Shown here in pieces: positions 6,467 through 53,086 of a stretch of DNA of 64,000 nucleotides (within the stretch, counting starts at the first letter, position 1; the number at the start of each line of letters is the position of its first letter). The position numbers and the translations under genes were made by a program. The DNA is from Candidatus Gottesmanbacteria bacterium (GTDB taxonomy: Bacteria > Patescibacteriota > Microgenomatia > UBA10105 > UBA927): positions 105,473 through 169,472 of the forward strand of contig CAWEKC010000003.1 of NCBI GenBank assembly GCA_963809665.1. The letters are read 5' to 3'. The notes under the pieces are model-generated. The model saw only the letters and a list, made by a program, of their open reading frames with translations, had not been told where the DNA came from and did no database searches.

Positions 6467-7342
6467 ATGGAAGAAATAACATTACAAGCGCTTCTTGAAG
6501 CCGGTTGTCATTTCGGACACAAAGCCGAACGGTGGCATCCGAAAGCCGCAGGATTCATTTACACGAAAAAAGACGGCATACATATCATAGATTTAGCTAA
6601 AACCAAAATCGGACTGGAAGCGGCTGCGGCATTTGTGAAAGACCTTGCCGGGAGCGGCAAAGAGGTCGTTTTTGTGGGTACCAAACGCCAGGCGTCGGGC
6701 GTCGTCAAACAGGAAGCGGCTGCTGCAGGTGCTCCGTACTTCGTCGAACGCTGGATCGGCGGATTTTTGACTAACTGGGACCAGATTAAAAAGAATATTG
6801 ATAAAATTCTCAAAATGGAAGCAGACAGGGCGTCCGGAGCCTGGAAAAAGTTCCCCAAGCACGAACAGGTGAAAATGGGACGGTATCTGGACCGCATCAA
6901 GATTTATTACGGCGGAGTACTTTCCATCAAAGCGATTCCGCAGGCACTGGTGGTCGTTGACGTCAAGAAAGAAGAACCCGCTGTCCGGGAGGGAAAACGC
7001 GTCGGGGTTCCGGTGGTGGGTATTGTGGATACGAACTCCGATCCCACACCGATTGACTATGTGATTCCGGCAAACGACGATGCTGTCGGTTCCATTCAAT
7101 ACATTATTCACGTTCTCGCGGGCGCTTATGGTGAAGGAAAAGCAGCGTGGGAAAAGGCGAATAAGGAAGAGACGGCAAGAATCGAAGCGGAAAAAGCAAA
7201 AACCGTAAAAGCCGTCCCCGGGGTTAAAGCACCGTTGTGCCGGAGGTTAAAAACAGAAATCGAACCGACGCAAAAGCTAAAGAGGCAAGAATTAAAAAAA
7301 CCTCGCAAAACTGACGAAAGCAGGCGTAAAATAATAGTATGA
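6467..7342 (+). CDS. rpsB: 30S ribosomal protein S2
   Basis: LLEAGCHFGH...RWHPK N-terminus, conserved uS2 core, Lys/Glu-rich C-terminal tail. Confidence 0.9.
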   Translation: MEEITLQALLEAGCHFGHKAERWHPKAAGFIYTKKDGIHIIDLAKTKIGLEAAAAFVKDLAGSGKEVVFVGTKRQASGVVKQEAAAAGAPYFVERWIGGFLTNWDQIKKNIDKILKMEADRASGAWKKFPKHEQVKMGRYLDRIKIYYGGVLSIKAIPQALVVVDVKKEEPAVREGKRVGVPVVGIVDTNSDPTPIDYVIPANDDAVGSIQYIIHVLAGAYGEGKAAWEKANKEETARIEAEKAKTVKAVPGVKAPLCRRLKTEIEPTQKLKRQELKKPRKTDESRRKIIV

Positions 7343-7794
7343 AAATTTCACTTGAACTTCTTAAGAAACTCCGTGCAGCTACTGGTGCCGGTGTGTCGGA
7401 TTGCAGGCAGGCGCTTGAGGATGCCGGAGGCGACTACGCAAAAGCAAAAAAACTCATTATGGAGCGGGGACTGGAAAAAGCCGCGAAAAAGGCAGGACGC
7501 CAAACCCAACAGGGATTAATTGAATCCTACGTACACGCCGGACGCGTCGGGGTACTTGTCGAACTTCGCTGTGAAACGGATTTTGTGGCGCGTACAGGTG
7601 ATTTTAAAAACTTAGCTCACGAACTTGCCCTTCAGATTGCATCCATGAATCCGAAAAACGTAAAGGAATTGCTCGTCAGCCCGTACATCCGTGATGAAGG
7701 GATTACGATTGAAGCGCTCGTCAAACAAACGGTCGCTAAAGTCGGCGAAAACATCACGGTTGCGCGCTTTACACGGATTGCGTTGGGTACATAA
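7339..7794 (+). CDS. tsf: Elongation factor Ts (short form)
   Basis: N-terminal UBA-like LLKKLRAATGAGVSDCRQALEDAGGDYAKA; 151 aa short EF-Ts; overlaps rpsB stop. Confidence 0.85.
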   Translation: MKISLELLKKLRAATGAGVSDCRQALEDAGGDYAKAKKLIMERGLEKAAKKAGRQTQQGLIESYVHAGRVGVLVELRCETDFVARTGDFKNLAHELALQIASMNPKNVKELLVSPYIRDEGITIEALVKQTVAKVGENITVARFTRIALGT

Positions 7795-7813
7795 TCGTGA
7801 TACTATTTTTTCG

Positions 7814-8362
7814 ATGATAGAATCCATTCTCAACACCGCACGGGAGAAGATGAAGAAAGCCCTCGATGTTACGCGCACGGATCTCACCTCCATTCGTTCA
7901 GGCCGTGCCACCCCAGCACTTGTTGAAAATATTTTCATTCTTGCCTATGGCGGAAGCCAGCGTCTTCGCGTGCAGGAAATGGCGACGATAGCCACGATGG
8001 ATTCTAAAACGCTGGTTCTTACCCCGTATGATCCGTCAACGATTGCGGAAATCGAGAAGGGGATTATGGCAGGCAGTTCGGGTCTTACACCCGTCGTTGA
8101 TCGGGAAATCATCCGTATTACGATTCCGATGCTGTCCGAAGAGAGACGTCTCGAATATATCAAACTCGCCAAAGCAAAATTGGAAGGCGGCCGCGTAATG
8201 GTGCGCCAAATCCGCGGAGAGGCCATGAAAGAGCTCAAAAAATTACTCTCTGAAGATGAACAAAAACACGGGGAACGCCTTGTGCAGGAGCTTACCGATG
8301 AAATGGTTGCGGAAATAGACAATCTCGGGACTAAAAAAGAAGCGGAACTCCTTCAGGTATAA
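7814..8362 (+). CDS. frr: Ribosome recycling factor
   Basis: MIESILNTAREKMKKALDVTRTDLTSIRSGRATPALVENI is a typical RRF N-terminus; 182 aa; start set at internal ATG 7814 rather than ORF-track 7691 that overlaps tsf. Confidence 0.85.
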   Translation: MIESILNTAREKMKKALDVTRTDLTSIRSGRATPALVENIFILAYGGSQRLRVQEMATIATMDSKTLVLTPYDPSTIAEIEKGIMAGSSGLTPVVDREIIRITIPMLSEERRLEYIKLAKAKLEGGRVMVRQIRGEAMKELKKLLSEDEQKHGERLVQELTDEMVAEIDNLGTKKEAELLQV

Positions 8363-36637: not shown

Positions 36638-37645
36638 CTATTCGGGTGTCCAATAGGCTGCCATATTAAGTAATCTCTGCTCTTTATTTTTGATGGTTTT
36701 TCTTACTGTTAACCCTGGTTCATCTAATCCGGGTGAACTGACACGGATTGGTAGGTCAACCAAATCTTCAGGACGAATAAGAATAAAGTTTTGTTCTTCC
36801 ATATTTTCATATATTTTGTCGGCCATATTCCAACAGGCACAGCTAAAACTCCACCAATCAACGCTGCTTATGCTTGCCCACTTCGCCATTTGTTCTTTGC
36901 TTGCGTCAGGTGCAATATACGGGAACGCTCTGGAAAGCTTGCCGGATGTAAGCGGTTCGTTAATCACTCTTCCAGATAAGGGTACAAAGGGGATAAAATC
37001 CCTTGCCTCAATCCAATCAACTGGCGTGCCGATATTTGTTTTTGTAATTGTAAGAATTCCATTAGACCGCAACGTACGAATCGATTCGTCAGTAGCGATA
37101 CCGAGCACAGCGGTATTGACTTTGATGTTCTCTTTAGCTAACTTTTGTGCTAGATCAACCAAAGAGCCTCCGGAATATGCGCCAACATCTATAACGCAAA
37201 TATCGCGTTTATCACCCAGTAGATAGTTAAGCTGTTGAATCTGCGTAATAATATCTGGATACCCAGGACGCGCAATTTCTGCAATGGAAAAATCCGCATT
37301 AAGTCCACGGGTGATATTCAGACATGCATCGGCTTCGTCTGCACCGTAAATCGGATCTAGTGACACAATGGGATAGCCAAGTTGTTTAACTCGAGCTACG
37401 TCCGTTTGGATATTTTTCTGAATTATTTCAGCATTCAGTACAGTAAGCGGAACCGGTCGAATAGTCTTTTCTAATTCTTCCGTTAAATCCGTTTGTACTT
37501 TGCGATATACATCAGCGGACGGCGGTTTCCAGCCCTTATACCTACACAGTGCGTTCATAAGTACCGGAACATCCCATGACAACACATATGACGGTGTCGG
37601 TTCGAGTTCTTTTGGACGAAATTCAATTTTTTCACTATTTACCAT
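36638..37645 (-). CDS. Hypothetical protein with PRTase-like PRPP-binding loop (ICVIDVGAYSGGS)
   Basis: 335 aa; hhhhD-x-G-x-x-S-G-G-S resembles type I phosphoribosyltransferase loop; 6-bp gap to upstream LOG-like gene suggests operon. Confidence 0.35.
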   Translation of the reverse strand: MVNSEKIEFRPKELEPTPSYVLSWDVPVLMNALCRYKGWKPPSADVYRKVQTDLTEELEKTIRPVPLTVLNAEIIQKNIQTDVARVKQLGYPIVSLDPIYGADEADACLNITRGLNADFSIAEIARPGYPDIITQIQQLNYLLGDKRDICVIDVGAYSGGSLVDLAQKLAKENIKVNTAVLGIATDESIRTLRSNGILTITKTNIGTPVDWIEARDFIPFVPLSGRVINEPLTSGKLSRAFPYIAPDASKEQMAKWASISSVDWWSFSCACWNMADKIYENMEEQNFILIRPEDLVDLPIRVSSPGLDEPGLTVRKTIKNKEQRLLNMAAYWTPE

Positions 37646-42145: not shown

Positions 42146-42231
42146 GCCTGGGTGGCGGAATTGGTAGACGCGCAGCTCTCAAAAAGCTGTGAAGCTAACA
42201 CTTCATGAGAGTTCGAGTCTCTCCCTAGGCA
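42146..42231 (+). tRNA. tRNA-Leu (anticodon CAA)
   Basis: 7-bp acceptor GCCTGGG/CCTAGGC, D-arm GCG-GAATTGGTAGA-CGC, anticodon stem CAGCT/AGCTG with loop CTCAAAA, long variable arm, T-arm GAGAG-TTCGAGT-CTCTC. Confidence 0.85.
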
Positions 42232-43704: not shown

Positions 43705-44640
43705 ATGGAGTTATCAATTACTCTTTTTGTCATCGGAGCGATCCTACTTCTTTTATCCACACAGGTATTCATCAAACAGGCTGAACGTGTATCAGTTTCA
43801 CTCAAGCTTTCACCGCTCATTATCGGATTGACAATTGTATCCATCGGGACATCACTTCCTGAGCTTACGGTTTCCACTATTGCTGCTGCTCGTGGCGACA
43901 TGGGGTTGGCGATGGGGAATCTTATCGGTTCGAATATCGTTAACGTATTTTTAGTCTTGGGAGTTGGCATGCTGATGGGAAAACTTCGGGTTGGCACCAC
44001 CAAAACCCAAAGGAATATCTTCATACTGTCCGGAATCACGGGATTATTTTTACTTTTATATTTTTTGGGATTATCAAATTTTATTGCCGGGGGTATTTTG
44101 CTAGCAATTGCACTGATAGTAACATTTGATGAATATATCTGGGGGGTCAACGGAAGAACACATGAAGACACCAAAATGTACGTCAAACGAAAATACTGCA
44201 GGTTTTCCGTTAAAGACGTCGGTACATTAATTGCCTCTCTTATAGGAGTTGTAGTGGGAGGGTTATTAACGGTTTCATCCGTGGAACAATTATCCGTGCT
44301 TTTGGGTTTTTCTACAACTATACTGGGTTTATCGATTTCAGCGATCGTAACTTCCTTACCTGAGTTATTGACTACGATATTTAGTCAGGAGGATGGAGAG
44401 GTGAAAATTACAATCGGAAATCTTATTGGAAGCAATATCTACAATCTTGCGCTTATAGGTGGAATCGTATTACTTTTTTCGCCTTGGAAAGCTTTATCGA
44501 CATACGAAATCATGATGCTGATATTCGCAACACTTACGTTTACCGTAGTTGTAGTCGGGAATAAAGGAAAAGTAATTCCGAAATATAACGGATTTTTACT
44601 GCTTTGCTTATTTGTCGCTTATATTTATTTTCTTAAATAG
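43705..44640 (+). CDS. Ca2+/Na+ antiporter (CaCA family)
   Basis: Two alpha-repeats GTSLPEL (VSIGTSLPELTVS and VTSLPELLTT), 10 TM helices. Confidence 0.8.
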   Translation: MELSITLFVIGAILLLLSTQVFIKQAERVSVSLKLSPLIIGLTIVSIGTSLPELTVSTIAAARGDMGLAMGNLIGSNIVNVFLVLGVGMLMGKLRVGTTKTQRNIFILSGITGLFLLLYFLGLSNFIAGGILLAIALIVTFDEYIWGVNGRTHEDTKMYVKRKYCRFSVKDVGTLIASLIGVVVGGLLTVSSVEQLSVLLGFSTTILGLSISAIVTSLPELLTTIFSQEDGEVKITIGNLIGSNIYNLALIGGIVLLFSPWKALSTYEIMMLIFATLTFTVVVVGNKGKVIPKYNGFLLLCLFVAYIYFLK

Positions 44641-47580: not shown

Positions 47581-48275
47581 ACATCCCCGTATTGTTTGAA
47601 GATACTTCGATGCTTGCGGTCAATAAACCTCCCGGAATTGTTGTCAATCGCGCTGAGTCGGTTAAAGGGGAGACGGTTCAGGATTGGGTGGAAAAAACAT
47701 ATCGGATATTTATTGAAAACAGAGCGGGCATTGCGCACAGGATTGATAAAGAAACCTCGGGAATCCTTTTGATTGCCAAAACTCCCGAAGCATTTACAGA
47801 GCTTCAGCGGCAATTTAAAGAACGGATGATCCATAAAACGTATATGGCAATTGTTCACGGCGCACTGGTGCCGGATACGGGGGAAATCCGTGCGCCCGTC
47901 GGGCGCCTCCCATGGAATCGGGAACGGTTCGGTATCGTTCCGGGTGGAAAAGAATCCGTAACGAGGTATAAGGTTGTTAAACTTTTTGAACGGTCCAAGG
48001 GGAAGCAATCAGAAAAATATTCCCTCGTTGAATTATATCCGGAGACCGGCCGTACCCATCAAATCCGTGTGCATCTGAAATATATTAACCACCCTATTGT
48101 CGGCGATTACCTTTACGCGGGCCGTAAGACCGCCAGAGACGACCGTGTGTGGGCCCCGCGCGTTATGTTGCACGCCTGGAAGGTCACCTGCGTACACCCC
48201 GCAAGCGGTGAGACGCTTGCAATCGAGGCGCCGATACCGGATGATATGAATGGTATCATTCATGGACGCGAATAG
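47577..48275 (+). CDS. rluA: RluA-family pseudouridine synthase
   Basis: LAVNKPPGIVV and catalytic HRIDKETSGILLIAKT motif; start set at ATG 47577. Confidence 0.8.
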   Translation: MNIPVLFEDTSMLAVNKPPGIVVNRAESVKGETVQDWVEKTYRIFIENRAGIAHRIDKETSGILLIAKTPEAFTELQRQFKERMIHKTYMAIVHGALVPDTGEIRAPVGRLPWNRERFGIVPGGKESVTRYKVVKLFERSKGKQSEKYSLVELYPETGRTHQIRVHLKYINHPIVGDYLYAGRKTARDDRVWAPRVMLHAWKVTCVHPASGETLAIEAPIPDDMNGIIHGRE

Positions 48276-49992
48276 CCTTTCACTCATCTCTACATTACTT
48301 CTCGTATTCAGCGCTGCGATTATCGGGGGCGCGATTGCGAAAATCTTCAAACAACCGACCCTGCTGGGATACATAGCCGCGGGCGTATTGTTCGGGAATA
48401 TATTTCCGCGGGCTACAGACGCTACGTTTTTAAAAGGGATAGGGGATATCGGGGTAACGTTACTGCTCTTTACAATCGGCGTTGAGTTTTCCTTTCGCCG
48501 GTTAAAGACGCTCCTCGGTACGCTGCCTTGGGCAGCTATAGCCCAGTTGGTCCTGTGCATTTTCCTGTTCCTGCTGCTTACGATGTTTCTCGGATTTCCG
48601 TTTTTGGCAGCTTTAGTCATTTCCATTGCGGGTTCGCTTTCCTCAACAGCGGTCATTGTGAAGGTACTCTCCGAGCGCGGGGAACTGGATTCCGTACCCG
48701 GTGAAGTGATGACCGGATGGTCAGTGGTGCAGGATTTGGCTGTCATTCCGATAATGATTCTGCTTCCGGTTGTCATCGCCAGCGCCACAACCGGAAATAT
48801 CACGGTACCGTCCGTCGTTACATCACTGGCTTTCGGCATCCTTAAGGCAGCCGTTGCGCTGGGTCTTATTATTTTTCTGGGGAAAACGGTGGTGCCCAAG
48901 GCGTTGGGGAAAGTGGCAGATCTCGGTAACCGTGAAATATTTATGCTTGTCACAGTAGGGCTTGTGATGTTATCCGCCGCCACGACCTATGTCCTGGGGC
49001 TCTCGGCTGCTCTTGGAGCTTTTGTGGCGGGACTTTTAATATCCGAAACGAGCCAGAATCATGCGATTTTCGCTGAAGTCCGGCCGCTACGGGATCTCTT
49101 CGTCGTCATATTTTTTGTCTCCATCGGGATGGGAGTACCGGGCTCTTATTTACTCCGGTCGGCCGGAATTCTGGCGATCCTGGCAATAGTCATACTTGCC
49201 GTTAAATGGTTTGTGGTTATGGGGTTGATGCGGTTTATGGGGTATCACCGAAAAACTTCGTTTCTTGTTGCCGTGGGACTTACGCAAATGAGCGAATTCG
49301 GGTTTATCATCGCCAGCCAGGGGTGGAGTTCTGGGCGCCCTGACCCGTGATCAATACACGCTGTTGGTTTCTCTGACATTTCTCACGATTTTGGTATCCA
49401 CGCCGTTTTTTTCACAGGGACACAGGTTGTATTATGGTCTGCATGGGTGGTTGGACAAATATATGCCGAAAGTATTCCATATATCCGCGGGCAGGCGGAG
49501 AAACAGGAAGAATTACCATACCGGGATCATATTGTGCTCTGCGGGTACGGGAGGGTAGGGAAGTATATCGGCAGGGCACTGGAAATGGCCGAAATTCCTT
49601 TCGTTGTTGTTGATTACAATAACGCGACAATTGCGGCATTGAAGATTAAAGGAATTCCCGTCGTTTATGGTGACCCTGCGGATAAAGGCGTTTTAGATTG
49701 GGCTCAGGTGGATTATGCAAAAGCCATTATTATTGCCATTCCGGACCGGCATACGCAGGAACTGGTGATTGCTCATGCCCAGACGCTTAACCGCCGTATT
49801 AAAATAATCTGCCGGACGCATCATGAGGAGGATCAAAAATACCTTAAGTCCCTGGGGGTGGATGCCGTGATACAACCGGAGTTTGAAGCGGCGCTATCCA
49901 TCGTAGAACGGTTGTTGCCGTCCTTCGGTGTCGCGGATGCAGATGTCGCCGGCAAAATTTCACGTCTCAAGATCGAACACGGTGTAGGGTAA
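48250..49992 (+). CDS. CPA2 (KefB-like) cation:proton antiporter with C-terminal RCK/TrkA-N domain, split by two homopolymer indels (about 49320 and 49489)
   Basis: Membrane domain in frame 1 to 49350, linker (GVLGALTRDQYTLLVSLTFLTILVSTPFF) in frame 2, RCK domain (HIVLCGYGRVGKYIGRAL) back in frame 1 from 49447; shifts at GGGG and GGG runs. Confidence 0.7.
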
Positions 49993-50013
49993 AAGTTAAA
50001 AGTGGCAATTCAG

Positions 50014-50391
50014 TTATGCTTCTTTATTTTGTATACATCCAGTAGCAGCTTCCTGCGGGAAGGAAAGTCCTGCATTTCTCAGAGATTGTGCCAAACAGGT
50101 TCCATGTGCTCGGTTTCCATCATTGAAGCATCTACACATAAGAGTTGTATCCACTTTTACATTTCCATCCTGCTGGTCTAGGTAATTTACGATGACGGCT
50201 TCACCGACTTTTATAGCTACCATCGCTCCTGTCTGTTCTGCCTGTGCAGCAGGAACAGTTTTGGAAAAAGTAATTTTGACAGCGCAATGTTCCGTTTTTG
50301 GCATACGATGACTTTGGAGTGTACATCCCTCTTTTAGCTTTGTCAATAAAAAGCCTGTTACAATAAGCTGTATGCAGGGTTTTAGCTTCAA
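50014..50391 (-). CDS. Hypothetical Cys-rich small protein (C-x-C-x9-HGTC cluster)
   Basis: 125-aa ORF in lower-GC segment; MCRCFNDGNRAHGTC metal-site-like cluster; no family recognised. Confidence 0.3.
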   Translation of the reverse strand: MKLKPCIQLIVTGFLLTKLKEGCTLQSHRMPKTEHCAVKITFSKTVPAAQAEQTGAMVAIKVGEAVIVNYLDQQDGNVKVDTTLMCRCFNDGNRAHGTCLAQSLRNAGLSFPQEAATGCIQNKEA

Positions 50392-50430
50392 ACAGCTTCA
50401 GTTCAAAATCGAACTCGACGCAGGGTGAAG

Positions 50431-50973
50431 TTATTTTTTAACGGTGATATTATATGCTGAAGTCCGTAAATTTTTCATATCTTTACTAATCCATTCTGAA
50501 TAAGATGTGCCTAAATTATTCATTTCCTCCGATGACATTTTTTGGAAATTCACCGGTTTAAAACCATGCTCGACAGCACAATCAATAATTAAAACGTGTG
50601 GCACCGAAATTAATGTCGGTTTGCCGTGCACAAATATTCCCTGGTTCCCACAAAACGGAACGTCCACAATTATAGAAACGTCAGCGTTTTTTTTGGTCAC
50701 ACGATAAATTTCATTCCAAATGTTAGATGTAAACCCCGTGAGATCATAGAGAAGCTCATCATGTGGAAGTACCATATCAACATGTTTAAATATACCGGTA
50801 ACGAACGGCAATGCCATTTCTGCATTCGCCTGGATTAATTTGACCTTATCAGTTATTTGCGAAAGCTGTAATGACAAGCGATCATAATCTAAACCAATCG
50901 TTGTTCCGTGATTATTGCGGAGGTAGGTACCGCCATAGCCTATGCCAATGTCTAACGTGAGTTCTTTTTTCAT
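50431..50973 (-). CDS. Small class I SAM-dependent methyltransferase
   Basis: Motif I LDIGIGYGGT, acidic beta2 end (GLDYD), motif III-like KLIQANAEMALPF; 180 aa. Confidence 0.5.
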   Translation of the reverse strand: MKKELTLDIGIGYGGTYLRNNHGTTIGLDYDRLSLQLSQITDKVKLIQANAEMALPFVTGIFKHVDMVLPHDELLYDLTGFTSNIWNEIYRVTKKNADVSIIVDVPFCGNQGIFVHGKPTLISVPHVLIIDCAVEHGFKPVNFQKMSSEEMNNLGTSYSEWISKDMKNLRTSAYNITVKK

Positions 50974-50990
50974 GAGATGTTTTTACCCGT

Positions 50991-51293
50991 TCACGATTTG
51001 GTTAACCTGTTGGTGACGATTTCCAAAATACCATTGATCATTGCTTCTTTCGCATCATCCGGTATCTGATCGATTAATATGGTATTAACCCTGTTCTCAA
51101 GTTTATCGTTGTTAGACCTTTCGGTAAAAAGTTGTACCCATATCGACGGGGTATCTTTGCTGACATCGATTTGTATTTTGTTTTCAGAATGAAACCGTGA
51201 GTTGGCAAGTTCAACAAGGTTTGATTCATCCGGCAGAGGAAAATCAGCACCGCGAAGTTCCAAATTGTACTTATTTTTAATACGTACCACCAC
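50991..51293 (-). CDS. Hypothetical protein
   Basis: 100-aa ORF in lower-GC segment, no motifs. Confidence 0.3.
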   Translation of the reverse strand: MVVRIKNKYNLELRGADFPLPDESNLVELANSRFHSENKIQIDVSKDTPSIWVQLFTERSNNDKLENRVNTILIDQIPDDAKEAMINGILEIVTNRLTKS

Positions 51294-51738
51294 TCCTTGG
51301 TCAAAGATAATGGGTTATCATAAATGGAGGCAATAGATAAAAATTCTCTTCCGTAAGGGTCGATTGTATCTTCGGCTAATGCTTTTAAATCATGTACAAC
51401 TGATTTTGTCGGAAGAATGACACTGCGGGAATCTCTTCCCGCATGCTCGAATACGGGATCGGATTGAAGTGATACGAAAATACCCTCTGCAGATCTCTTT
51501 CAGGTTCATTTTGTGCCTGTCACTTCACCATTCGAAGTGTCTCGAGTGCATAATATAGTACGATCGCCAATGTATCACCGTTGTGCGCTGCTCTGATCAG
51601 TTTGGCACAGAGCGGTCCGATCCTCAGTCGTAATGACGTCTAACATGTCTATTTCTTCCGGGGTTAAAGGTTCAAAGTTTTTGGGCATTTTGGGCGATTC
51701 AACAGGGTTATTCATAGGTTGGTACTATATCATTTTTT
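51294..51738 (-). pseudogene. Gene-free stretch with short decayed ORF fragments (for example 49-aa ORF 51566-51715)
   Basis: No ORF of 60 aa or more on either strand over 445 bp in an otherwise tightly packed genome; short fragments in several frames. Confidence 0.3.
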
Positions 51739-51777
51739 GTGTGTTTTATCAATCCGGGACGTGCTAAAATAGGGGAC

Positions 51778-52914
51778 ATGGCCGTATTTAGCTTCAGGCA
51801 GCTTCATAAAGACAAGAAAACACAGGCACGGACAGGGGAAATACACACGCCCCACGGTATAATTCAAACTCCTGCGTTTGTACCGGTGGGTACACAGGCA
51901 ACGGTAAAAAGCCTCACACCCGAAGAATTGGATACAATTGGTGTTCAATTATTTTTCGTGAATACCTATCATATGTACCTGCGGCCGGGGATTGAAGTTG
52001 TCAAAAAAGCGGGAGGGTTGCATAAATTTATGAATTGGAAAAGTCCGCTTATGACGGATTCCGGGGGATTCCAGATATTTTCATTGGCGCGAAAAGCCTC
52101 TCTGGTAAAGATCACCGATAACGGGGTTGAATTTCAGTCCCATTGGGATGGCACGAAACACCTGTTTACACCGGAGACAAGTATGCAGTGGCAAACCGCC
52201 TTAGGCAGCGATATTCACATTGCGTTTGATGACTGCACCCCATACCCGGTCACGCACGAGAAGGCAAAAAAATCCATGGAGCGGACTCATGAATGGGCAA
52301 AAAGAAGTCTTGCGGAACATAAAAAAATAAATAATAAAAATATTGCTGCAAAAAAATCAAATCAGGCTTTATATGGCTCAATTCAGGGGAGTGTATTTGA
52401 GGATTTGCGGCAGGAGTCGACGAAATTTATCACTTCTATGGATTTTGACGGGATTGCAATCGGCGGCGTATCGGTAGGGGAAAGTAAAAAGGAAATGGAA
52501 CGGGTAGTACGGTGGGTTGTTCCGCTTTTGCCTGGAGAGAAACCCCGCCATCTTCTGGGGGTGGGGGAGGTAGATGATATTTTTACTCTTGTGGCGTACG
52601 GCATGGATACGTTTGACTGCGTCCAACCCACGAGACTTGCACGCGTCGGGAAGCTATATGTAAAACATAGCCACATTGATATCATGAAAGCTGTATTTGC
52701 CCGGGATTTCGGACCGATTGAACGGGGCTGCACGTGTTATACGTGTACAAATTTTACCCGTGCATACATTCATCACCTGTTTCACGTCCGGGAACTATTG
52801 GCGTATAGACTGGCAACAATCCATAATCTTTATTTCATCCACACGCTTGTCGGGGATATCCGGAAAAGTATTGCGGACAATTCGTTCCTTGAACTCTCTC
52901 ACGCGTGGCTTTAG
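51778..52914 (+). CDS. tgt: Queuine/preQ1 tRNA-ribosyltransferase
   Basis: GIIQTPAFVPVGTQA, zinc site CTCYTCTNFTRAYIHHL (CxCxxC...H), DSGGFQ; start set at ATG 51778. Confidence 0.85.
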   Translation: MAVFSFRQLHKDKKTQARTGEIHTPHGIIQTPAFVPVGTQATVKSLTPEELDTIGVQLFFVNTYHMYLRPGIEVVKKAGGLHKFMNWKSPLMTDSGGFQIFSLARKASLVKITDNGVEFQSHWDGTKHLFTPETSMQWQTALGSDIHIAFDDCTPYPVTHEKAKKSMERTHEWAKRSLAEHKKINNKNIAAKKSNQALYGSIQGSVFEDLRQESTKFITSMDFDGIAIGGVSVGESKKEMERVVRWVVPLLPGEKPRHLLGVGEVDDIFTLVAYGMDTFDCVQPTRLARVGKLYVKHSHIDIMKAVFARDFGPIERGCTCYTCTNFTRAYIHHLFHVRELLAYRLATIHNLYFIHTLVGDIRKSIADNSFLELSHAWL

Positions 52915-52936: not shown

Positions 52937-53086
52937 ATGCCGTCATTCGGTGATTATACTAACGATAAAAAGAAGAAACTGAAAAAATCTGTGCTGGAAA
53001 AAAAGGCGCAAAAACAAATGAACAACTCCGGCGCATGGCAGATGCCGCAGGTTGAAATTATCAAAAAGGGCAAGAAAGACTGGTAA
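52937..53086 (+). CDS. Small Lys-rich protein (49 aa) with strong Shine-Dalgarno
   Basis: GGAAGGAGGA 7 nt upstream of ATG 52937; highly basic; function unknown. Confidence 0.35.
   Translation: MPSFGDYTNDKKKKLKKSVLEKKAQKQMNNSGAWQMPQVEIIKKGKKDW

Follow-up and report, generated by a model that had tools for sequence, protein, structure and literature searches.

Positions 50014 to 51738 of the window (the whole stretch of 64,000 nucleotides that we analyzed) are best explained as an ordinary variable, AT-rich accessory slot that contains a modestly novel methyltransferase. We estimate the probability of this explanation, taken as a whole, at roughly 60%. The host belongs to the candidate phyla radiation: it is a Microgenomates bacterium that is related to Gottesmanbacteria. 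The slot itself spans 49993 to 51777: it is bounded by the end of kefB and by the start of tgt, which is most likely the ATG at 51778 (MAVFSFRQLHKD, the same in the related locus L001). A string of minus-strand genes converges with kefB and diverges from tgt. It begins at a promoter-like site that is conserved and encodes, in order, a 68-aa-type small protein, a conserved hypothetical protein of 174 aa, and a stand-alone methyltransferase; next is a strain-specific 96-aa ORF that contains several cysteines and has a promoter-like site of its own. We infer that the string is cotranscribed.

The composition of the slot is unusual. The GC content of 50014 to 51738 is 40.3%, as compared to an average of 47.0% across the window (standard deviation of 2.1% for 1,725-bp windows; z = -3.5), and no other stretch of 1,725 bp in the window falls below 42.6%. 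The dip is larger than the chance variation within the window, and the AT-rich composition that the first-pass annotation reported between kefB and tgt holds up in a sliding-window comparison. GC at third codon positions is also lowered: it is 0.37 for the methyltransferase and 0.30 for the cysteine-containing ORF, versus 0.49 ± 0.05 for 55 long ORFs. The value for the cysteine-containing ORF is below that of all 55 (minimum, 0.36). Homologs of the methyltransferase and of the 174-aa gene in related genomes are likewise AT rich relative to their own flanks, with one exception, the methyltransferase homolog in L091.

The content of the slot varies between the same flanking genes. In L002 and L004, kefB directly adjoins tgt, an arrangement that the first-pass annotation had proposed looking for. 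In L082 to L085, the slot contains just a 175-aa gene; in L081, it contains 68-aa and 173-aa genes and an unrelated 186-aa gene; in L090, the methyltransferase is alone between tgt and kefB; and in L001, the slot contains an unrelated ORF of 315 aa. L088 and L093 lack tgt but retain the methyltransferase in the slot, so its proximity to tgt is coincidental, as the first-pass annotation had suspected. In L088, an AbiEii-type gene and a GHKL-like ATPase lie beside it, and the slot of L093 includes a HATPase_c gene. Deviant composition together with variable content between conserved flanks is what is expected of an island or variable hotspot. As in other variable accessory or defense hotspots, the flanks (kefB, and tgt or lytR) are conserved, close relatives differ in content, the GC content is low, and one equivalent slot (in L088) contains an AbiEii gene. 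Unlike those hotspots, this slot lacks an integrase, a tRNA, and direct repeats. In particular, no integrase was found among the ORFs of the window, the slot contains no tRNA or Rfam element (the only tRNA in the window is at 42146), and the slot is not surrounded by meaningful repeats.

To the first-pass annotation, the islet looked either horizontally acquired or decaying. Horizontal acquisition describes it only in part: the cysteine-containing ORF alone is unique to this strain. The 174-aa gene and the methyltransferase recur across the clade (the former in the slots of L081 to L086, and the latter in those of L088, L090, and L093, among others), so they are not one-off cargo; they are long-term slot residents that are retained patchily.

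Both flanking genes are conserved. tgt (queuine tRNA-ribosyltransferase; 51778 to 52914, plus strand) is intact (Pfam TGT, E = 3e-145) and is 81% identical to its counterpart in L081 and 68% identical to that of L001, which is from a "Candidatus Gottesmanbacteria" genome. kefB (48250 to 49992, plus strand) encodes a K+/H+ antiporter with the Pfam domains Na_H_Exchanger and TrkA_N. It is intact, at 564 to 579 aa, in L001, L081, L082, L088, and L093. In the window, it is spread over three frames (+1 near 49329 and -1 near 49485) and reads as ORFs of 366, 64, and 181 aa.

The ORF map of the first-pass annotation was accurate for the methyltransferase (50431 to 50973), the cysteine-containing ORF (50014 to 50391), and a 100-aa ORF (50991 to 51293), but the fourth and smallest ORF is at 51575 to 51715 (46 aa) rather than at 51566 to 51715 (49 aa). 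Between the 100-aa ORF and the long ORF of tgt are 445 bp with only short ORFs. The 100-aa ORF had been taken for an orphan, and the 445 bp had been suspected to be the remnants of a methyltransferase or restriction endonuclease partner. Neither idea survives comparison to the related loci. The 100-aa ORF (minus strand) is the C-terminal part of the conserved hypothetical 174-aa gene (50983 to 51509, minus strand), and the 445 bp comprise the 5' part of this gene and the 68-aa-type gene. Homologs of the 174-aa gene are present at the same locus in L081 to L086, and the intact ones (P0083, P0084, and P0085) have 173 to 175 aa. Relative to L081, the DNA of this gene is 83% identical, and the protein, after repair of the reading frame, is 80% identical. 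The indels that break it are near 51495 (+1), 51325 (+1), 51308 (+1), and 51013 (-1).

The small gene (51512 to 51715, minus strand; MNNPVESPK..NFEPLTPEEID..) is frameshifted after 46 open codons (51575 to 51715). Over 43 aa, it shares 77% identity with the 68-aa gene of L081, and in L086 the identity is 66% over 35 aa; the homology resumes in another frame (AKLIRAAHNGDTLA.. in the window versus AKLVESAQKGDPLA..). In L081, the stop codon of the 68-aa gene and the ATG that starts the 173-aa gene overlap. The promoter-like site lies 5' of the small gene and is divergent from tgt (51724 to 51752, minus strand; TTGATA-17-TATAGT with a TG, which is a consensus match only); it is almost identical in L081.

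Neither the 174-aa protein nor the 68-aa protein has a match in Pfam, NCBIfam, PADLOC, PHROGs, or the PDB, and the same is true of the 186-aa protein of L081 and the 315-aa protein of L001. We considered whether the 174-aa protein might be a small relative of GHKL proteins, but it is unrelated to the 387-aa and 403-aa neighbors of the methyltransferase in L088 and L093. It is not related to the 315-aa protein of L001 either. That the 186-aa gene of L081 might encode a methyltransferase was also ruled out.

Are the broken genes really decaying, as the first-pass annotation suggested? The 174-aa gene carries four uncompensated indels, kefB carries two, and the small gene carries several, which is the kind of frame disruption that defines pseudogenes. 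If the decay is real and ongoing, then all three genes would be true pseudogenes around an intact insert of the methyltransferase and the cysteine-containing ORF. The location of the indels fits with this: they cluster at the variable cassette, and the six other flanking genes that we compared (lgt, dksA, rluD, tgt, lytR, and a 267-aa gene) have unbroken, near-full-length alignments to their relatives. Also, in the assembled sequence, the indels are not clearly linked to homopolymers, and several lie outside them.

However, other evidence argues against decay. First, if this many indels were neutral, then many unconstrained substitutions would be expected as well. We looked for relaxed selection (dN/dS moving towards 1) in the repaired 174-aa gene and did not see it: dN/dS relative to L081 is 0.21, which is similar to the values for pairs of intact orthologs (0.18 for L086 versus L081, and 0.38). 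Second, the out-of-frame segment of kefB still translates as the kefB protein. Third, a Logan contig from ERR12037368 encodes methyltransferase and 96-aa proteins that are identical to those of the window, with the same spacings. The frame of the intact 174-aa gene is interrupted in the window, but in this contig it yields an ORF with a length of at least 157 aa, whose stop codon is 9 nt before the ATG of the methyltransferase, and the ORF is open through three of the four indel sites. Thus, at the level of ORFs, the frame disruptions of the window are not reproduced in the second assembly.

Given the low dN/dS and the open ORF in the second assembly, the indels in the 174-aa gene, the small gene, and kefB are probably consensus errors, or at most very recent, and do not reflect long-term decay; we consider real decay to be somewhat unlikely. 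Since the indels are confined to 2.3 kb and are not spread over the window, they require a local cause, which may be heterogeneity among strains. Consensus errors would arise at a spot that varies among strains. Users of this metagenome-assembled genome should treat 49.3 to 51.7 kb as low-quality consensus before inferring that genes were lost. What looked like an orphan gene and the debris of pseudogenes resolves into two conserved genes that, like kefB, probably contain consensus indels.

The cysteine-containing ORF is the only gene in the slot that is unique to this strain, and it is putatively coding. If it starts at a TTG codon, it spans 50014 to 50391 (minus strand) and encodes 125 aa; the gene callers in two assemblies chose the ATG at 50304 instead, which gives 96 aa (50014 to 50304, minus strand) with five cysteines (C7, C57, C59, C70, and C90). 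In a word-prefiltered search of 5.8 billion proteins, it matched only itself. The 96-aa protein has no match in Pfam, NCBIfam, PADLOC, PHROGs, or the PDB; the ORF is missing from all 95 of the loci that we fetched, including the nine other loci that contain the methyltransferase (L087 to L095); and viral contigs did not include related loci for either this ORF or the methyltransferase. A second promoter-like site (TTGACA-17-TACACT, again a consensus match only) lies at 50318 to 50346 on the minus strand, just 5' of the ATG.

The first-pass annotation also raised the possibility of a modification or RiPP-like pair, made up of the methyltransferase and the small cysteine-rich protein. Their genes are neighbors on one strand, and the five cysteines include a CxC motif, but the ORF is missing from all nine of the other methyltransferase loci. 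The two genes are separated by 126 nt, with the promoter-like site of the ORF in between; the slot has no gene for a YcaO, LanM, or radical-SAM protein, for a protease, or for a transporter; and RiPP methyltransferases score below the Kam enzymes that are discussed below. We consider a RiPP-like pair to be extremely unlikely.

The methyltransferase (50431 to 50973, minus strand; 180 aa) is a compact class I SAM-dependent enzyme from an undescribed family. A word-prefiltered search for homologs returned only the query itself; an exhaustive search of representative sequences identified a family of about 80 representatives, and the residue counts given here are from 48 of these. A search for related loci with four sequences from the family found just one partial metagenome locus. 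The methyltransferase recurs in the slot in five related loci, with 36 to 46% identity, versus about 90% identity for kefB.

Several features indicate that this is an intact class I enzyme. Motif I is L7-D8-I-G10-I-G12-Y-G14-G15; D8 is present in 46 of the 48 sequences, and G10, G14, and G15 are invariant. D29, the acidic residue that ends beta2, where the ribose of SAM is bound, is also present in 46 of 48. An AlphaFold 2 model that was built from the alignment has the seven-stranded beta-sheet of class I methyltransferases, with a pLDDT of 95 (a single-sequence model reached only 37). To judge from its sequence, the protein would bind SAM via D8, G10, G12, and G14, via D29, and via T156, which is at the position of the serine that contacts the SAM carboxylate in Kam enzymes. 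T156 (threonine in 44 of 48 and serine in the other 4) aligns with that serine in NpmA, S195, and is followed in the model by a helix (157 to 168). In the Kam enzymes, the serine belongs to an expanded beta6/7 linker, which caps the pocket for SAM.

The closest sequence profile and the closest fold are those of NpmA and KamB, which methylate 16S rRNA at A1408 (m1A1408). Among proteins with solved structures, NpmA is the top sequence match, with residues 7 to 167 aligned; a single-sequence search of the PDB gave only noise, and a fold search of BFVD gave only generic methyltransferases. We compared the family to Pfam PF24675 and to the structures of KamB (3MQ2), NpmA (3MTE and 4OX9), CacKam (4X1O), and NpmB1 (7EHF). 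The class I fold and the order of its elements are the same, D8 and D29 align with D30 and D55 of NpmA, LPF and FP motifs are shared, and the helix of the beta6/7 linker has T/S-x-aromatic where NpmA has S195-x-W197. The fold is that of the Kam/NpmA rRNA adenine-N1 methyltransferases, and the architecture of the beta6/7 linker would be theirs as well.

These similarities raise the question of whether this is a genuine 16S rRNA m1A1408 methyltransferase that gives aminoglycoside resistance. A patchy, fast-evolving, accessory distribution would suit a resistance gene. However, two tryptophans of the Kam/NpmA enzymes (W107 and W197 in NpmA) are described as universally conserved and essential, and they sandwich the flipped A1408 (PMC4705659). 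Neither tryptophan is found in any of the 48 members of the family: the position of W107 is H71 in the window's protein and is otherwise histidine or variable, and the position of W197 is Y158 (phenylalanine in 26 of 48 and tyrosine in 13). The protein is also about 35 to 40 residues shorter. The N-terminal beta-hairpin (beta-N1/N2) is missing, as beta1 of the model begins at residue 5 and just 7 residues precede the aspartate of motif I (5 to 12 in 43 of 48 members), compared to about 29 in NpmA. A 7-residue gap opposite KKPSKGG of NpmA shortens the beta2/3 linker. In NpmA, this linker is basic and docks on 16S rRNA via K66, K67, K70, and K71; the corresponding segment of the window's protein, LQLSQITDKVKL, has two lysines and is not basic, but the segment is basic in some members of the family. 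Furthermore, the protein scores 26.7 bits against PF24675 (the gathering threshold is 60) and 13.1 bits against the NCBIfam model for WarA (threshold of 305), and the family is from Patescibacteria-type contexts rather than from antibiotic producers or plasmids. Thus, a genuine Kam/NpmA enzyme is very unlikely.

We also compared the family to two other groups of methyltransferases. No members match Methyltransf_4 (PF02390; E ≤ 0.01), the Pfam model for TrmB, the tRNA (guanine46-N7)-methyltransferase (1YZH and 3DXX), and the motifs of TrmB were not identified. The generic models Methyltransf_11 and Methyltransf_25, which cover enzymes with small-molecule or unknown substrates, share motif I and the W/L-x-E-x-x-R-V-L-K that follows motif IV. 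They match 28 of the 48 members, with E values down to 2e-8, and Pfam's NpmA model also matches 28. However, the C-terminal beta6/7-linker segment and the alignment coverage fit the Kam enzymes better, and the window's protein does not reach the gathering scores of the generic models either (17.9 versus 21.2 bits and 15.1 versus 27 bits).

Another proposal was that the islet is a degraded restriction-modification system or another kind of defense cassette, in a defense hotspot. The fast evolution of the methyltransferase and its neighbors in L088 and L093 are what such a cassette might show. However, no islet protein has a match in PADLOC, and the methyltransferase lacks both the (D/N/S)PP(Y/F/W) or PCQ motifs of DNA methyltransferases (its motif IV is L-P70-H-D-E) and a target-recognition domain; at 180 aa, it is too short to include an additional domain. 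Rather than remnants of nucleases, the broken ORFs are conserved hypothetical genes, and mobility genes, tRNAs, and flanking repeats are absent from the slot. This makes a defense cassette highly unlikely.

In the slot, which is otherwise ordinary, only this rare, compact methyltransferase family is mildly new; its nearest relatives in structure are the m1A1408 enzymes of aminoglycoside resistance, but it lacks their defining residues. We suspect that its target would be a base of a structured RNA, either rRNA or tRNA, and that it would not use the two-tryptophan mechanism of the Kam enzymes. The median pI of the family is 6.3, which does not support RNA binding, and no conserved neighbor points to a substrate. 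A more speculative idea, which we consider rather improbable, is that it may found a new family of rRNA or tRNA base methyltransferases: a stripped-down cousin of Kam/NpmA, with histidine or a variable residue and phenylalanine or tyrosine in place of the two tryptophans, which is kept as a fast-diversifying hotspot gene of Patescibacteria and protects translation from an antibiotic or toxin of neighbors, hosts, or phages. If the enzyme does act on rRNA or tRNA, then a new mechanism would be added to the Kam-type fold, and the fold would be extended to organisms whose genes for resistance or for the protection of translation are barely known.

All of the ORFs that the first-pass annotation listed between kefB and tgt were recovered by an ORF scan of the window. 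Those on the minus strand include a small cysteine-containing ORF (the Cys ORF; 125 amino acids from a TTG start; 50014-50391), a class I SAM methyltransferase (180 amino acids; 50431-50973), and a 100-amino-acid ORF (50991-51293). The 445 bp between the last of these and the long tgt ORF (51739) holds short ORFs only, such as one of 46 amino acids (51575-51715). To the left is a kefB-type antiporter (48250-49992, plus strand) with Na_H_Exchanger and TrkA_N domains, and to the right is tgt, which matches the TGT family (E = 3e-145). The long tgt ORF opens with GTG; as judged by comparison with a Candidatus Gottesmanbacteria locus (L001), the true start is most likely the ATG at 51778, in which case the slot between kefB and tgt would be 49993-51777. 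This start would also leave a 62-nt divergent promoter region common to tgt and a small gene on the minus strand.

The islet (50014-51738) was correctly described as AT-rich: its GC content is 40.3%, versus a mean of 47.0% for the window (z = -3.5). It is the lowest-GC stretch of 1,725 bp in the 64 kb, and no other falls below 42.6%. GC3 is 0.37 for the methyltransferase and 0.30 for the Cys ORF, versus 0.49 ± 0.05 for 55 long ORFs. Three other ORFs in the window have low GC or GC3 (644-1225, 39.0% GC; 36638-37645, GC3 of 0.36; and 43705-44640, 39.3% GC), and these may be further accessory genes.

We then considered what relatives carry in this slot. The tgt protein is 68% identical to that of Candidatus Gottesmanbacteria and 59 to 64% identical to those of other Patescibacteria. 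Closer relatives were retrieved through exact-protein look-ups: the housekeeping proteins of loci L081, L082 to L085, L086, L087, L088/L089, L090, and L093 are 70 to 96% identical to the window's. The gene order is conserved (lgt, dksA, rluD, kefB, the slot, tgt, a 49-amino-acid gene, and lytR). The lysine-rich 49-amino-acid gene (MPSFGDYTNDKKKKLKKSVLEKKAQKQ...KKGKKDW; 52937-53086, plus strand) is retained as a gene of 49 to 51 amino acids in L082, L088, and L090.

Because the content of the slot differs among these relatives, we consider it a variable accessory slot. In L002 and L004, it is empty and kefB adjoins tgt, an arrangement that the annotation had proposed to look for. L001 has an unrelated 315-amino-acid ORF (6986-7933, minus strand), which has no family match and is 36.7% GC, versus 49% for its locus. 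L082 to L085 have only a 175-amino-acid gene; L081 has genes of 68 and 173 amino acids and an unrelated gene of 186 amino acids. The methyltransferase is alone in L090, shares the slot with a 92-amino-acid gene in L087 (where it is cut by the contig end), is accompanied by a GHKL-like gene of 387 amino acids and small genes in L088/L089, and accompanies a HATPase_c gene in L093. The suspicion that proximity to tgt is coincidental was borne out: tgt is missing from the locus in L088, L089, and L093, and the methyltransferase keeps its place in the slot in L088 and L093.

The supposed orphan turned out to be part of a conserved gene. The conceptual translation of 50991-51715 matched three intact proteins of 173 to 175 amino acids, which are encoded at the same locus in relatives and which span the 100-amino-acid ORF and about 70 residues from another frame upstream. 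From tgt through this 174-amino-acid gene, the window's DNA aligns with L081 at 83% identity. The window's copy (50983-51509, minus strand) has uncompensated indels near 51495 (+1), 51325 (+1), 51308 (+1), and 51013 (-1), as well as a compensated pair (51476/51472) and an in-frame insertion of 3 nt. The 46-amino-acid ORF is the beginning of a small gene (68-amino-acid type), which L081 and L086 also have and which continues in another frame in the window; a promoter-like site (51752-51724, minus strand; consensus match) lies in a block that is nearly identical in L081. Thus, the 445 bp that were read as gene remnants are the 5' part of the 174-amino-acid gene and the 68-amino-acid-type gene, and domain, PADLOC, and PDB searches of the orphan and remnant stretch found no resemblance to a methyltransferase or nuclease partner. 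Beyond this gene, 990 nt of the window (49993-50982, the methyltransferase and Cys ORF segment) are swapped exactly for 597 nt of L081 (1981-2577, the 186-amino-acid gene). The limits of the swap are the stop codons of the 174-amino-acid gene and kefB, and the junctions have no repeats.

Are these breaks real? kefB is also split, into ORFs of 366, 64, and 181 amino acids, by a +1 break near 49329 and a -1 break near 49485; it is intact in five relatives (564 to 579 amino acids). The roughly 50 codons in between still encode KefB sequence when translated in the shifted frame, so the split is probably a consensus error. If the 174-amino-acid gene were a real pseudogene, its 527 nt should have gathered many unconstrained substitutions along with the four neutral indels, but dN/dS for the repaired gene versus L081 is 0.21, which lies between the values for intact pairs (0.18 for L086/L081 and 0.38 for L082/L081). 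Furthermore, a Logan contig from run ERR12037368 encodes exactly the same methyltransferase and 96-amino-acid protein (the shorter form of the Cys ORF), with the same spacings of 126 and 21 nt. Upstream of the methyltransferase, and ending 9 nt before its ATG, this contig contains an open frame of 157 or more amino acids, the same frame that the intact gene uses (..VNQIVNG*). That frame is open for just 22 or so codons in the window, so the two assemblies must differ at three or more indel sites. Six other flanking genes (lgt, dksA, rluD, tgt, lytR, and a 267-amino-acid gene) align with relatives over nearly their full length. Together, these results argue against long-standing decay, and we consider real pseudogenes unlikely. 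The indels are concentrated around a strain-variable cassette, which suggests that the consensus is poor there. From the sequence comparisons, we estimate a probability of about 0.75 that the breaks are an artefact or a very recent change.

The view of the islet as accessory DNA holds in that the slot is variable, although two of the genes in it have resided there for a long time. In relatives, too, the methyltransferase and the 174-amino-acid gene are richer in AT than the DNA around them (apart from the methyltransferase homolog in L091), so low GC is a lasting trait of these accessory genes and not proof of recent import. Slot methyltransferases are 36 to 46% identical between genomes (62% for one pair), while the C-terminal domains of KefB there are 72 to 91% identical. 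The methyltransferase has no conserved partner across the loci compared, and in L090 it is the lone gene of the slot. A degraded restriction-modification or defense cassette is not supported, as there are no DNA methyltransferase motifs, no PADLOC hits, and no nuclease-derived debris. In L088 and L093, the slot does contain AbiEii and GHKL-like genes, which may give it some flavor of a defense hotspot. The AbiEii-type nucleotidyltransferase of L088 scores 24.9 bits, which is above the cutoff. The GHKL/HATPase_c-like genes (387 to 403 amino acids) adjoin the methyltransferase homolog in L088 (4080-7441), L089, and L093 (3131-5010), and two of their proteins are barely alike.

A word-prefiltered search with the methyltransferase returned only the query itself; an exhaustive search found 80 cluster representatives (37 at E ≤ 1e-10), nearly all of 175 to 210 amino acids and mostly singletons from metagenome assemblies. 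The family alignment has a canonical motif I (LDxGIGxGGxY), the beta2 Asp (D29), LPF, an invariant Pro in motif IV, and a T-x-F/Y motif near the C terminus. We compared it to Kam/NpmA, the 16S rRNA m1A1408 methyltransferases of aminoglycoside resistance, whose defining features are a beta-hairpin at the N terminus, a basic beta2/3 linker, expansion of the beta5/6 and beta6/7 linkers, and two universally conserved and essential tryptophans (PMC4705659). The slot methyltransferase lacks the hairpin, and its beta2/3 linker is 7 residues shorter. None of 48 aligned members has tryptophan at either position: NpmA's W107 is replaced by His or is variable, and W197 is replaced by Phe or Tyr. T156 aligns with the Ser that contacts the SAM carboxylate. 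The protein is thus the Kam family's closest relative without being a member of it. By resemblance, the substrate could tentatively be a base in a structured RNA. Distant homologs lie in unrelated contexts: one is beside TPR genes (L091), and another, P0012, is two genes downstream of an RsgA-type GTPase of 30S biogenesis (L094 2063-4522, and L095). The latter position fits a ribosome-related role, although it may be coincidence.

For the Cys ORF, gene callers choose a 96-amino-acid form (start 50304, minus strand), which has a promoter-like consensus match 13 nt upstream of its ATG and five cysteines (C7, C57, C59, C70, and C90). Word-prefiltered protein, Pfam, NCBIfam, PADLOC, PHROG, PDB, and viral-contig searches, and the 95 loci, yielded no relatives. 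Its GC3 is lower than in any of the 55 long ORFs compared, and it occurs with the methyltransferase in this strain only. A 125-codon open frame is unlikely to arise by chance at this composition (per frame start, we estimate about 5e-4). The ORF could be a genuine gene confined to this strain, or it could be noncoding. Without co-conservation or a core enzyme, the proposed RiPP or modification pair finds no support.

Overall, the locus is an ordinary variable slot of a candidate-phyla-radiation genome, and it holds a modestly novel methyltransferase family along with what is likely an assembly-quality problem.
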